Shown here: one piece after another, positions 8,293 to 55,035 of the stretch
How positions within the stretch are numbered: the first letter of the stretch is position 1
Layout of the letters: every line of letters starts with the position of its first letter
Assembly (NCBI GenBank): GCA_964016885.1
Contig: OZ024747.1
Coordinates: 40,920,001 to 40,984,000, forward strand
DNA from: Eledone cirrhosa
Lineage: Eukaryota
Direction of reading: 5' to 3'
DNA length: 64,000 nt
The notes under the pieces: generated by a model
The model's input: the letters and a program-made list of their open reading frames with translations, nothing else
Told to the model about the DNA's origin: nothing
Database searches by the model: none
Made by a program: the position numbers and the translations under genes

Positions 8293-10006
8293 TTTCGTAT
8301 GAAAAGGAAAAGCAACGTGTTGCTGTGTTGCTGTGATAATCAAATGTTAGTATATGATTCATGTCTATCTCCGATTGATGACTTGTATGAGTGTTTTTGG
8401 TAAGAGATGAGTTACAGAAAACATTAGATTTTTCACTCGCTATTTACAGCGTATGGAATCTATTTAAACAGTATTTCCTTTGGAAGCCAATCCCTATTGT
8501 TTGCCAAGAGGCGGCTTTGGAGTTGTGTTAGTATTTGATATTTTCAGCTGAATGATGTGTGCATTACTTAAATATGTTTACGCTTTTAAACAGTTTCACT
8601 GATATGTAGAAAACAAATGAGAAACACATTTACTGTCTAATAGAAAATTAAGAATGGATTTCCTAAACATAAGCAAAACGACATAGTCGAGGATTTTTAC
8701 TTTCTCTGTTAAACTAAGGAAGCTGTTTTGTGATCGAATCATGATCTAGGTCATAACAATGAGAAAAGATAGAATCAAAACAAAGACATACGATAACATT
8801 CTTGTCTAGTATTGGAATCCGATATTCAGACCGACTGTACAAGTATAATTGAACAAATATATCATAATGGAACAATATATAAACTCTTTAGTATATCTTT
8901 CTGCAGCCAAGAATACAGTTTTGTATACGAAATAATCGCAAGGTAATATATAAGAAAGAAAACAAAATTCATAAAAATACTACATGTAAGGAAAAGAAAA
9001 TATAATTAAAAGCAAAACAAAACGTCATGCCACATCTACGAAACTTTTACTTAACTTCGCTCTCAGTTTTTCCTTTCCATAACTACAAATATTAGGAACA
9101 GCCTTCACCCAATTTCCCTTTAAAAGGATGAAGGTAAACATCAGTTAAATGGACCTCGTAGTTTAACCCGACAAAATATTTTTTTTAATGGTTTCCAGAT
9201 TTGTTATTTTCTCAAACCAAACTATCCTTCTTGATTTCATAAATTTTAGTCGCGTTAATGTAATATCTTTTGCTTAGTGAAGCATTACGGGAACTTTTAT
9301 CTCTCAGTAATCATGAAACGAAACCAAACCTTCCGTGTAAAAAAGCAAGAATTTAATGTAGTTATGTTCTTCTATCATATAGGTTTATTTCTTTCATTTA
9401 ACTCAGTAAGAAAAAAAAAGAAGATATAGAAATAAACTAAACAATTGCGTGAATGATTCTTTTTTCTTTTTCTTATTCTTAAATCGATTGTTACTGCGAC
9501 CGAATGGGATATGGCTAAGCTAGTGTGCTAATGTTATGGAAAAAGATCTGGGCGATAGAAGGAAAAACAAATCACTTGTATAGAAATTTATAAGCGAAGA
9601 TGTTTTATATGGAGAGGGATTGCACATCACTACGTTGTTTATTATTGTTTACGTTGTTTCAAGTGAGTGCAAATTTAATTCCTATATTCGTTAGAAACAT
9701 CATTTCAGTGAGATTTATATAGCAATATAATACTGCTTTCACTAAACAAAAAAGGTGAAATAGAGAAAATTCAATTGACTCCAATATATTGTTAGCAGTT
9801 ATCGAATTTGGAATGTTAAAAGTTGGAGTAGACATCTGTGTCATGTGATCTCAGTACAAGGATAAAGTAGATTACATTTAGCAAGGCGTTTAGGGGAACA
9901 AAAACAAAACTTATACACATATATACATGAATATATACATACATGCAGCATATATATAGATAGATAGATAAATATACACGGGTGTGTATGATTGTGTATA
10001 GAAGAT

Positions 10007-10397
10007 TATATTAATACGAGGAATTCCAACTTTGTCTGATTTACTCGTTTTATTTACAATCCTTTAAAATTTATAATGGTATTATAATGAAATAGTATGA
10101 TAGAATATTAAATTCTAAGTGTTAATTGAAGAAGCACTTTCATGCTTTCGCAATCTTCAGGTTCATAATATGTGGTGACAGTCAAGTTTGCAATTTTCAA
10201 CAGTTGAAAATTGCAAACTTGACTGTCACCACATATTATGAACCTGAAGATTGCGAAAGCATGAAAGTACTTGTTCAATTAACACTTAGAATTTAATATT
10301 CTATCATACTATTTCATTATAATACCATTATAAATTTTAAAGGATTGTAAATAAAACGAGTAAATCAGACAAAGTTGGAATTCCTCGTATTAATATA
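10007..10397. repeat. Near-perfect ~390-bp palindrome of family HH-A (third arm at 12661-12846)
   Basis: Arms mirror around 10202 (caattttcaa cag ttgaaaattg) with only a few mismatches. Flanked by TA-type tracts. Confidence 0.92.
10239..10277 (+). ncRNA. Minimal type I hammerhead motif (HH-A)
   Basis: TGAAC-CTGAAGA-TTGC gaaa GCAT-GAAA-GTAC-TT-GTTCA. Stem I TGAAC/GTTCA, palindromic stem III AGTACT, U.U closing stem II. Confidence 0.7.
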
Positions 10398-11082
10398 TAT
10401 ATATATATATATATATATATATATATATAAAGAGAGAAAGAGAGAGAGAAAGAGAGAGAGAGAGAGAGAGAGAGAGAGAGAGAGAGAGAGAGAGAGAGAG
10501 AGAGAGAGAGAGCGAGAGAGAGAGAGAGAGAGAGAGAGAGAGAGAGAGAGAGAGAGAGAGAGAGAGAGAGAGAGAGCTTATTCGATTTGTGCTGTTTATG
10601 CAATTGTTTGCATGATTTACACATAGTGAATTCATTTGCCAAAATCTGGTGTTTTTCCCCTGTGGGTTACACATGTGCTTTTACAAAACACTGTGTCATC
10701 CACAACACTGGCGCAGAACAAAGTTCACGTTGATAACGTGATATTCCTCGTTCGATCATTATACCAAAAGCTTATTATTTTAAGCAGACAGTATTATTGA
10801 TTGAGGTGTCGCATAAACCCTGTACTGGATTATACTATCAATTCCGAGGTCCGGGTGAATATGTCATTTATTTTGTCTGACCCGTTTGGCTTGACTCGTT
10901 TTCTTTTTGGCTCAGGTGGTTAATGGCTTCTAGACCGCCTTCTCAGTTTGTATGGCCGTTATAACCTATGTTTATTGCTCTGGTCTCTTTAGCCCATGGA
11001 GCGCTTGCCAGCGTGACTCGGAATTTGCGTTGCGTTTCGCTTTTTCCTACCTTCCGAAATGCGATTCTCGCTGAATTTGTAT

Positions 11083-12665
11083 TTATATATACATATTCAT
11101 ATATATATATATATATATATATATATATATATATATATATATATATATATATATATATATATATATATATATATATATACATATATATATACATATATAT
11201 ATATATATATATATATATATATATATATACATATATATATACATATATATATATATATATATACATATATATATACAATATATATATATATATATATATA
11301 CATATATATATACATATATATATATATATATATATATATATATATAATATACATATATATATATATACATATATATATATACATATATATATATATATAC
11401 ACATATATATATATACACATATATATATATATACACATATATATATATATACACATATATATATATACACATATATATATATACACACATATATATATAC
11501 ACATATATATATACACATATATATATATACAGATATATATATATATATACATGTATATATATATATATATTATATATACATGTATATATATATATATATA
11601 TATATATATATAAATATATGTATATATATATATATATATACATATATATATATATATACATATATATAAATATATATATATATATATATATATATAAATA
11701 TATGTATATATATATATATATATATATACATATATATATACATATATATATATATACATATATATAAATATATATATATATATATATACATATATATATA
11801 TATATATATATATACATATATATAAATATATATATATATATATACATATATATATATATATATATATATATATACATATATATATATATACACATATATA
11901 TATATATATATATATATACATATATATATATATATACACATATATATATATACATATATATATATATATACACATATATATAAATATATATATATATATA
12001 TACATATATATATATATATATATATATACATATATATATATATACACATATATATATATATATACATATATATATATATATATACACATATATATATATA
12101 CATATATATATATATATACACATATATATATATACACATATATATATATACATGTATATATATATACACATATATATATATACACATATATATATATACA
12201 CATATATATATATATACATGTATATATATATATATATATAAATATATGTATATATATATATATATACATATATATATACATATATATATATATACATATA
12301 TATAAATATATATATATATATATATACATATATATATATATATATATATATATATATATATATACATATATATATATACATATATATATATATATATATA
12401 TACATATATATATATATATATATACATATATATATATATACATATATATATATATATATACATATATATATACATATATATATATATACATATATATATA
12501 TATACATATATATATATGTATATATATGTATACATATATATACATATATATATATATATATATATATATATATATATATATATATATATATATTTATATA
12601 TATATTTATATATATATATATTATATATATATATATTTATATATATATATATATATATATATATT
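11083..12665. repeat. ~1.6 kb compound (TA)n/(TACA) microsatellite
   Basis: Seen directly. It generates the spurious poly-(IY) ORFs. Confidence 0.97.
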
Positions 12666-54363: not shown

Positions 54364-54449
54364 GTGTCCGACGAGCCCACAGCTCTAGAGTCAGACATCC
54401 ACACAATGAGCGTGTCTCGAGCTGTCAGCCGGCGAAACAAATGTAACGC
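54364..54449 (+). ncRNA. Hammerhead motif with extended stem II (HH-C)
   Basis: GTGT-CCGACGA-GCC [acagctc..gagctgt] GGC-GAAA-CAAATG-TA-ACGC. U4 is replaced by C. Confidence 0.55.
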
Positions 54450-54578
54450 ACAATAAATTGAGTTGAGATGCGTCACTGATTTTTCGTTTTATTTATATCA
54501 TACTCTGCTATGTAAGAGCATAGAGTGCTCAACCGGCATACCTCCTATGGAAGCATCTTAGCTACCATCAGACACACA

Positions 54579-55035
54579 CTATATCAAATATATAAGAACC
54601 GTAGAGCAAATATTTATTAAAATAACAGATTAAAGTTTAAGCAAAGAATTGCTGCTTTCACCCTTAACGGGATCTTCTGAAACTCAGAAGATCCCGTTAA
54701 GGGTGAAAGCAGCGATTCTTTGCTTAAACTTTAATCTGTTATTTTAATAAATATATATATATATATATATATATATATATATATATATATATATATATAT
54801 ATATATATATACATATATATATATATATATATATATATATATATATATATATATATATTTATTTATTTATTAAAATAACAGATTAAAGTTTAAGCAAAGA
54901 ATCGCTGCTTTCACCCTTAACGGGATCTTCTGAAACTCAGAAGATCCCGTTAAGGGTGAAAGCAGCAATTCTTTGCTTAAACTTTAATCTGTTATTTTAA
55001 TAAATATTTGCTCTACGGTTCTTATATATTTGATA
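54579..55035. repeat. Double palindrome of family HH-G with minus-strand hammerhead motifs at 54633-54685 and 54886-54938
   Basis: Two ~140-bp hairpins separated by (TA)n. Minus strand reads GAGTTT-CAGAAGA-TCCC gttaa GGGT-GAA-AGCAG..TTGCT-T-AAACTT. Confidence 0.7.

Follow-up and report, generated by a model that had tools for sequence, protein, structure and literature searches.

The DNA analysed here, referred to as the window, is a 64-kb stretch of Eledone cirrhosa contig OZ024747.1, and at least eight families of lopsided palindromes together occupy about 10 kb of it (Table 1). Each typically comprises an inverted, 5'-truncated copy standing head-to-head with a direct copy or a partial tandem. 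These palindromes are true footprints of insertion, left by small ribozyme-bearing elements that do not code for protein and are related to Penelope-like retrotransposons. The window also holds matches to LINE ORF2, the best at 70% identity, and ARAGORN found no tRNA.

Table 1. Palindromic elements and associated features, in positions of the window; signed numbers are offsets within a family.
Feature	Positions	Strand	Remarks
HH-F short arm	25248-26418	-	1.17 kb, non-coding; hammerhead-like core 25350; reaches further 5' than its long partner
HH-F long arm	26419-26709	+	23-bp duplication at junction; hammerhead-like 26525-26610 with U3-A8 core; tail 26631-26708
TATA-like TATTTAT (26539) and Inr-like TTAGTCC (A at 26570)	26539-26574	+	stop point of mini-arms
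HH-F mini-palindrome	27323-27527	long -, short +	long 27323-27461, short 27470-27527; both stop at -40
HH-F mini-palindrome	34038-34229	long -, short +	long 34038-34177 (stops -41), short 34177-34229 (stops -35)
HH-F mini-palindrome	34292-34453	short -, long +	short ~34292-34311 (stops near cut site), long 34314-34453 (stops -41)
HH-F solo long arm	52069-52596	+	follows the 25248 arm to about -410
HH-F relative, diverged (73%)	55915-56052	-	similarity likewise stops at -39
HH-B short arm	14494-14879	-	hammerhead core 14750; 5' end -153
HH-B long arm	14879-15356	+	core 15027; 5' end -158; 14-bp templated duplication 14893-14923; tail ~15284-15356 with 13-bp hairpin
Target-site duplication, left, AATAAGAATTCT	36249-36260	+	12 bp; only 2 occurrences in window
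HH-B short arm	36260-36962	-	one and a half 466-nt tandem units; core 36516
HH-B long arm	36961-37864	+	1.94 tandem units of 466 nt, 437/438 identical; cores 37067, 37533
Target-site duplication, right	37864-37875	+	12 bp
A long arm	9971-10202	-	tail 9971-10007 (37 nt) ends in 6-bp hairpin
A short arm	10203-10395	+	type I hammerhead motif, core 10244; ends in (TA)n
A solo short arm	12662-12850	-	same short end; head-to-head with unrelated element at 12851
C long arm	14060-14299	-	hammerhead core 14250; tail ~82-85 nt
C short arm	14296-14381	+	
C mini-insertion	41762-41885	short -, long +	short ~41762-41790, long ~41786-41885; short reaches 14 nt further 5'
C insertion, non-standard ends	42610-42855		hammerhead core 42746 (-)
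C arm, diverged	49790-49929	+	ends near short site; core 49828
I short arm	17681-19530	-	matches partner to 18212; remainder assigned by strand skew
I long arm	19533-20116	+	only GAAA half of hammerhead core; tail 58-62 nt
I solo arm, diverged	54333-54579	+	same long end
P	45287-45899	short -, tandem +	short inverted arm 45287-45317, then partial tandem of 339-nt unit; 28-nt tail ending in (CA)n
G doublet, long-short-(TA)n-short-long	54585-55032		cores 54679, 54932 (-); same SNP split in both halves; counted once
H	55143-55540	long -, short +	long ~55143-55360 (tail 24-27 nt), short 55380-55540; no hammerhead inside arms

A sequence-only reading of this DNA had proposed that independent insertions of a family share one short and one long terminus, and the endpoints it gave are correct within 1-3 nt, the spread reflecting TA overlap. 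The HH-F short arms all end at +20 from the predicted hammerhead cut (25248, 27527, 34229 and 34292), and the five long arms likewise share one endpoint, at +98 in four and at +99 in the arm ending at 26709, which has an extra T. The 98-nt F segment holds 18 TA/AT sites, and the chance of four short ends falling on one of them is low (p ~2e-4). Both HH-B insertions end at +226/+228 on the short side and +301/+302 on the long side, leaving a tail of 74-75 nt. The HH-F tail measures 78 nt (earlier estimate ~79), that of A 37 nt (~36) and that of G 28-33 nt (~33). A tail of ~65 nt had been ascribed to an HH-C family that was not defined; its nearest counterpart here is family I, with 58-62 nt (82 in the diverged copy). 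Tails are 82-85 nt in the family called C here, 24-27 nt in H and 28 nt in P, and lengths of 58-85 nt in four families compare with 30-40 bp in the descriptions of Penelope-like elements cited below. The sharing of ends is confirmed in HH-F and HH-B; the G doublet probably records a single event that was duplicated and not two independent insertions.

A cut or half core was located in six families (F, B, A, C, G and I); in each, the standard ends are on its 3' side and the arms meet head-to-head. Exceptions are the C insertion 42610/42855, whose ends are non-standard (~+100 and ~-31), and the palindromes 13780-13875 and 42185-42250, which are symmetric. The idea of one tail structure for all families was rejected: folding reaches significance in B, C and A (z -1.7 to -3.9) and not in F (z -0.8 to 0), G or H, so the AC-rich stem-loop of PAc, a Poseidon element of Anolis (PMC11167929), is not general here.

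The two ends are also paired. Exactly one short and one long end, with a tail of 24-85 nt on one end only, occur in 13/16 two-armed structures (p=0.011), and among families with replicated ends (F, B and C) in all eight insertions (p=0.004). The count of 16 takes the G doublet once and leaves out K (15603-15934, a palindrome decayed to 67%), E (52824-52996, its right arm cut by another element), the mini-palindrome 41883-41923 (interrupted by a nested insertion) and inverted SINE pairs. Private variants are common to both arms of an insertion; HH-F arms group by insertion, with 0-2 differences within and 3-12 between (1/60 matchings as good). Two RNAs transcribed from the same master locus could also account for such shared variants, as could gene conversion at a later time. 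That two RNAs can take part is suggested by the A arm that abuts a different element at 12850.

At their 5' ends, the two arms stop no more than 6 nt apart in 5/11 events, where ~1-5% would be expected for each. The short arm extends further 5' than the long arm in 3/12 insertions scored (25248, 41762 and 17681). At 25248 it runs to at least -410, confirmed by the copy at 52069-52596, versus -190 for the long arm; the excess at 41762 is 14 nt, and that at 17681 is read from strand skew only. These offsets were read off alignments manually, and for the 25248 and 17681 arms the far ends are estimates.

Sites matching the hammerhead pattern number 12 in the window, compared with a mean of 0.2 in 30 shuffles, and 11 of them lie within these families. 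By pattern, families A, B, C and G carry a type I (minimal) hammerhead in the repeat, on the sense strand and upstream of the 3' ends. Rfam HH9 matches five B sites (E 6e-6 to 2e-4, below the gathering score). HH-F folds as a three-way junction in all three long copies and is a hammerhead by pattern and fold only: none of its 32 Rfam matches is a hammerhead, and the base of stem II is imperfect. The full motif is missing from I, which has a half core, and from H, which has none, while a copy related to P has a hammerhead-like core at ~42145-42180. The cut-site dinucleotide is UU in the HH-B copies of 36260-37864 and UC in those of the 14494 insertion. Rfam also returns many sub-threshold miRNA matches on these elements.

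HH-F has a third fixed point. Six of ten arms stop at -41 to -35, i.e., within 7 nt, and counted per locus 4/6 stops fall within 3 nt (p < 3e-4). By the Inr and TATA consensus motifs, the stop lies at an Inr-like site with a TATA-like box 31 nt upstream, an arrangement found in 3/3 long F copies; such a match has a background of 4e-4 per position, in a test made post hoc. By eye the pattern is absent from B, I and the element at 12851, and it was found only in F. In sequence, the HH-F stop point looks like the 5' end of the transcript; the site also forms the 3' strand of an RNA hairpin, and a pause of the reverse transcriptase (RT) would fit as well.

Runs of (TA)3 or more adjoin 25/34 tested ends, against a background of 6.6%, the same (TA)n preference as in Neptune, Hydra and Naiad. 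One target-site duplication (TSD) is readable; its 12 bp, ambiguous by 1-2 nt, are similar in size to the 8-10 bp of Adineta Penelope-like elements. The suggestion that both ends are TA-compatible is half borne out. In 5/7 families the short ends share at least 3 nt with the (TA)n flank (background 8%, p ~6e-5), in B and H only 1-2 nt, and long ends could be tested in B alone (3 nt). The microhomology script anchored upstream of the junction in 5/14 rows (25248, 34230, 34291, 12665 and 41762), and the family values were taken from the remaining rows and checked against the alignments. TA pairing does not fix the ends, because one B insertion lies at a non-TA site and nonetheless keeps both ends to within 2 nt.

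What kind of element leaves such footprints? The comparison with Penelope drawn from sequence holds, and hammerhead motifs, head-to-head inverted truncated arms, a one-sided tail, partial tandems, (TA)n or AT-rich targets and a short TSD match published descriptions (PMC3846280, PMC4209133, PMC8557442). Penelope/Poseidon, Neptune and Hydra share the inverted 5'-truncated copy, one-sided tail, partial tandems and a hammerhead in the repeat (PMC3846280, PMC8557442, PMC8969392). Minimal hammerheads paired on opposite strands, 100-700 bp apart and with a U3-A8 core, have been described (PMC4209133), as have a tail that is often on one end and (TA)n targets (PMC8557442); the layout is already published for Penelope-like elements. 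Unlike endonuclease-bearing (EN+) members, no copy here has an ORF, and whole insertions are as small as 120-200 bp. A Pfam scan of 150 frames (from 156 candidates, with 12 of the list left out and 6 added) gave none that reached the cut-off or matched a retroelement domain, and two protein searches revealed no real remnant of Penelope RT or GIY-YIG. One of them, with a 110-aa frame, found nothing; in the other, a 36-aa frame with a YVG motif (26278-26385, minus strand) had one match, P0131, a repeat protein without a Pfam family and with weak 19-aa matches only, and was rejected as spurious. Two window motifs had no match in the Naiad/Chlamys/Hydra consensus supplement, Octopus Naiad 3' ends appear unrelated by eye, and an exact 21-nt HH-F pattern had no match in the genome contig collection. 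As no Penelope ORF encoding a telomerase-like RT with GIY-YIG was found, membership in the group is by structure only, and the elements are not classed as autonomous members. Taken as a whole, they are likely to be non-autonomous derivatives or 3'-end fragments of EN+ Penelope-like elements, their pLTR-type RNAs moved in trans by a Penelope-type RT/GIY-YIG protein.

HH-B also resembles the metazoan non-LTR retrozymes (PMC7229834; preprint 10.64898/2026.07.22.740005), which the preprint derives from pLTRs. Its tandem unit is non-coding and low in GC, every full unit carries a type I hammerhead, the consecutive cores at 37067 and 37533 mark 466-nt units, and the TSD exceeds 4 bp. The unit is just above the 150-450 nt of PMC7229834 and within the 51-972 nt of the preprint. 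Unlike retrozymes, HH-B, known here from its sequence, was inserted as two inverted arms plus tail, and the word "inverted" is absent from PMC7229834.

The best model has a dimeric Penelope-type RT start from two fixed sites, probably of a single RNA, with both target strands as primers. That each RNA has two defined priming sites remains the best reading of the ends and is not new: the explanation was published earlier for PAc in vitro, where the hammerhead is followed downstream by two RT start sites, the tail spans the stretch between these sites, both strands are cut and extended, a dimer is predicted and ribozyme cleavage is not needed (PMC11167929). The present insertions differ from PAc in that one site serves one end of an insertion and the second site the other, in that short ends frequently share 3-5 nt with the TA target, and in that the 5' stop is fixed. 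Counting against the model, PAc showed no difference between strands in start site in vitro, and no homology between primer and start site (PMC11167929).

To judge from the single TSD, integration would begin at an AT-rich target, usually (TA)n, with both strands cut ~11-12 nt apart to leave 3' overhangs. Each 3'-OH would then serve as primer for the RT at S or L, two fixed internal positions located downstream of the hammerhead, as seen in vitro for another element; the tail would be the RNA between S and L. The new step proposed here is that S and L may be used once each per event, most simply by a protein dimer that holds both sites of a single RNA, which is copied twice. As the sequence of the arms shows, both cDNAs traverse the hammerhead cut site, often with a common stop point, and the template was therefore uncleaved or re-ligated. 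Lastly, the cDNA 3' ends would be joined head-to-head through 0-4 nt of microhomology or short templated duplications, yielding the asymmetric palindrome. In LINE-1 twin priming, both target strands also prime cDNA and an inversion results, from non-overlapping parts of one RNA and a variable internal site; the arms here, by contrast, are copies of one and the same region, and their internal site does not vary.

Alternatively, a single cDNA from the long site could fold back at its 3' end, copy itself to the short site and be joined to the target, S then being a resolution point and not a priming site; a similar self-priming idea has been put forward (PMC3846280). This would explain the rule of one short and one long end, the shared variants and the coincident 5' ends without extra assumptions, and it fits the small hairpins at the A and G palindrome centres and the TA overlap of S. 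It does not allow the short arm to extend 5' beyond the long arm, and so fails in the three insertions with an excess unless later central deletions rescue it, and two start sites have been seen directly in vitro (PMC11167929). We regard it as unlikely. Replication-based inverted duplication, in which template switching at self-complementary (TA)n later turns single-armed retrocopies into mirrored ones and the ends seem fixed because switches fall on TA motifs, would suit the TA-rich short ends and the G doublet, where one allele is in both short arms and the other in both long arms. Yet the B insertion outside TA shows the usual ends and a clean TSD of 12 bp, F used a single one of its 18 TA/AT sites 4/4 times and flanks are not mirrored, and the proposal is accordingly very improbable.

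MITEs or foldback DNA transposons with TA target duplications share the palindromic, non-coding character and the TA on both sides; instead of symmetric terminal inverted repeats, fixed length and a fixed short TSD, the elements here show asymmetric ends, a different centre in each copy, variable lengths, 5'-truncated arms, tandem units, hammerheads and a 12-bp TSD, so that this origin is largely refuted, though it may apply to the symmetric element 13780-13875. An assembly or amplification fold-back artefact, for which very long (TA)n runs and one F pair with identical arms (61/61 nt) could be cited, is scarcely credible given the TSD in one B insertion, differences in 10/11 arm pairs (0.6-4.4%; 37 transitions, 14 transversions), ends recurring at loci up to 30 kb apart and the decayed palindrome K.

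Returning to paired priming by a dimer, the window adds the end-pairing rule, shared private variants, longer tails, the third fixed point of HH-F and short arms that reach further 5'. The origin of Penelope-like inverted repeats and tails has been named as an open task (PMC8557442), and the steps after priming were left unvalidated (PMC11167929). Tentatively, and with the odds somewhat against it, a mini-palindrome may be a frozen record of a full Penelope integration, in which one dimer with two sites copied one RNA twice and both cDNAs ran off the capped 5' end at the pLTR promoter and were then joined. If so, tail length would be a family-specific loop of up to ~85 nt, tandem retrozymes such as HH-B would move by the same reaction and palindrome centres would map transcription starts genome-wide. 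In HH-B, one locus with a TSD combines a tandem unit of retrozyme type with the insertion geometry of Penelope. Elements of this sort could be mistaken for MITEs, SINEs or miRNA hairpins, and the many small, dateable insertions in this genome offer testable rules: one short and one long end, one template lineage and a shared 5' stop.

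In the HH-F family of palindromic insertions, where a short and a long copy lie head to head, every short arm ends at +20 relative to the predicted hammerhead cut (4/4) and every long arm at +98 or +99 (5/5), leaving a 78-nt tail on the long arm alone. The fixed termini that the sequence-only reading had proposed are thus borne out, as are the common endpoints of both HH-B insertions (short ends at +226/+228, long ends at +301/+302). One-sided tails, which it had also noted in HH-A, HH-C and HH-G, measure 24–85 nt in families A, G, I, C, H and P; over all families, HH-F and HH-B included, four have tails of 58–85 nt. 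Inverted structures were listed by self-comparison of the window with simple repeats masked and then aligned per family, and family letters beyond F, B, A and G were assigned in this analysis rather than by the earlier reader. A fixed long end alone is unremarkable, because a fixed 3' end is usual for any retroposon; the informative feature is the fixed internal short end. For the four HH-F short ends to fall at one of 18 TA/AT sites has a chance probability of about 2e-4. In the HH-B tandem unit the template extends past the long end as well. Exceptions are a C insertion (42610/42855) with non-standard ends and two symmetric palindromes (13780-13875 and 42185-42250).

The palindromes are very unlikely to be an artefact. 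In ten of 11 pairs the arms differ, by 0.6–4.4%, with 37 transitions and 14 transversions, and the HH-B insertion at 36260-37864 lies outside a TA run and is flanked at both ends by a 12-bp direct repeat that occurs only twice within the window.

A hammerhead pattern scan returned 12 sites, where 30 shuffles averaged 0.2; 11 of the 12 belong to families A, B, C and G. Rfam HH9 matched five HH-B sites with scores under the gathering score. HH-F was detected with a looser pattern and gives a three-way junction fold in 3/3 long copies, two of which need a slip in stem I. With its U3-A8 core, long stem II and lack of an Rfam hammerhead match, the HH-F motif is graded as hammerhead-like, a putative ribozyme. 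Standard ends lie 3' of the hammerhead motif, the cut site is traversed by most of the head-to-head arms, and 25/34 ends adjoin (TA)3+ (background 6.6%). HH-B is a tandem unit of 466 nt (identity 437/438), while family P comprises a 339-nt partial tandem plus a short inverted arm. A Pfam domain scan of frames and protein searches found no coding remnants in the elements, whose origin is very probably Penelope-type.

The ends had also been proposed to be TA-compatible. This holds for short ends in F, A, C, G and I, which overlap the TA flank by 3–5 nt (5/7 families, background 8%); in B and H the overlap is 1–2 nt. The non-TA HH-B insertion retains both ends, and therefore TA pairing does not set position, though it may help.

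One short and one long end were found in 8/8 insertions of families with replicated ends (p=0.004) and in 13/16 overall (p=0.011), taking G once and scoring the three exceptions as failures. Private variants are common to both arms of an insertion: HH-F arms show 0–2 differences within insertions vs 3–12 between them, and 1 of 60 matchings is equally good. In 5/11 events the two arms have stops no more than 6 nt apart (expectation 1–5% each). HH-F has a third fixed point, with 6/10 arms stopping at -41 to -35; by locus, 4/6 of these 5' stops fall within 3 nt (p<3e-4, geometric truncation model). The stop doubles as the 3' strand of a hairpin. It carries TTAGTCC, with TATTTAT 31 nt upstream, in 3/3 long copies (background 4e-4 per position), in a post hoc test using consensus motifs with a loosened pattern for the TATA box, and the arrangement is not repeated in families other than HH-F. 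HH-B 5' stops (14879-14890, 36961) lie 7–35 nt downstream of the preceding unit's long site, at -158, -153 and -136 modulo 466, as expected for a transcript starting there or for a single pass around a circle.

In the proposed mechanism, a Penelope-type protein supplied in trans would cut both target strands with a stagger of about 11–12 nt; one cDNA would be primed at the short site and the other at the long site, and their 3' ends would then be joined. Three junctions (14893, 26419 and 27463) bear short templated duplications, which fit end-joining or RT slippage. Two primings per insertion are likely. Copying one RNA twice would account at once for the pairing rule, the variants shared by both arms and the coinciding stops, and relies on an RT without RNase H; a single RNA source for both cDNAs is put forward tentatively. 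Two RNAs of one master locus are a possible alternative, and the junction at 12850, where the 5' end of the pLTR-like (Penelope terminal repeat-like) unit meets a short arm of family A head to head as a mixed-family inverted pair, may be such a case. Fold-back, in which one cDNA primed at the long site copies itself to the short site, could not produce the short arms that extend further 5' than their long partners (25248, 41762, 17681) without later deletion.

In two doublets, at 54585-55032 and 34038-34453, the short ends face each other over one TA run; the former, from family G, has one allele in both short arms and the other in both long arms, with the strand orientation of a 3-nt loop unchanged. 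The surrounding animal DNA is AT-rich and dense in repeats, including long (TA)n runs and SINE-like repeats, and may resemble that of octopus.

Additional structures and repeats in the window
Feature	Position	Strand	Characteristics
pLTR-like 614-nt unit	12851-13542	+	79-bp direct repeat; CTGATGA half core; ends in (TA)n with 4-nt overlap
Symmetric palindromic family	13750-13875, 49647-49709		four arms with common end site; tail absent, hammerhead not clear; may be another type of element
Families E and J	15455-15590, 52824-53133, 55545-55742		two more TA-flanked families; E left arms end at common point; J has degenerate hammerhead-like core, copies rearranged relative to each other
Old palindrome	15603-15934		arm identity 67%; possible short one-sided tail; decayed hammerhead-like core
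L1/Tx1-type LINE	2173-7573	-	1110-aa open ORF2 frame, 641-aa frame upstream; RVT_1, Exo_endo_phos, zf-RVT domains; 3' end adjoins (GATA)n runs
LINE fragments	363-1581, 56604-58148		
606-nt repeat unit	16320-17103, 62826-64000		partial tandems with TA/TG microsatellite tails between; no hammerhead found
45-bp minisatellite	21507-22625		~25 copies; unit matches part of dispersed SINE-like repeat (47047-47090)
Exact tandem duplication	50719-50967		146 bp, 5' part of a SINE with TA run, copies 100% identical; may be a very recent event or an assembly slip

The accessible parts of the literature describe inverted pLTRs with an optional 31-bp tail and target-site duplications of 8–10 bp, for which self-priming was proposed (PMC3846280), and minimal hammerheads paired on opposite strands 100–700 bp apart and tied to truncated elements, as well as the U3-A8 core (PMC4209133). 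An in vitro study found both strands of the target to be cut and extended, with RT starting at two internal sites and the tail being the stretch between them (PMC11167929). Given this published layout and these two start sites, the earlier interpretation of Penelope-like elements with two priming sites is of the correct kind and has been published before. Non-LTR retrozymes are derived from pLTRs according to a preprint (10.64898/2026.07.22.740005); related work includes PMC7229834, PMC2377424, PMC8969392, PMC12602865 and PMC13282606. The pairing rule, the 5' stop and tails above 40 nt were not found stated in these accessible parts or through literature searches, and subscription papers, Repbase notes and supplements may hold them. 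The palindromes are real, and a known class accounts for them well; they are new in size, tail length and regularity; their regularities are usable mechanistic leads.
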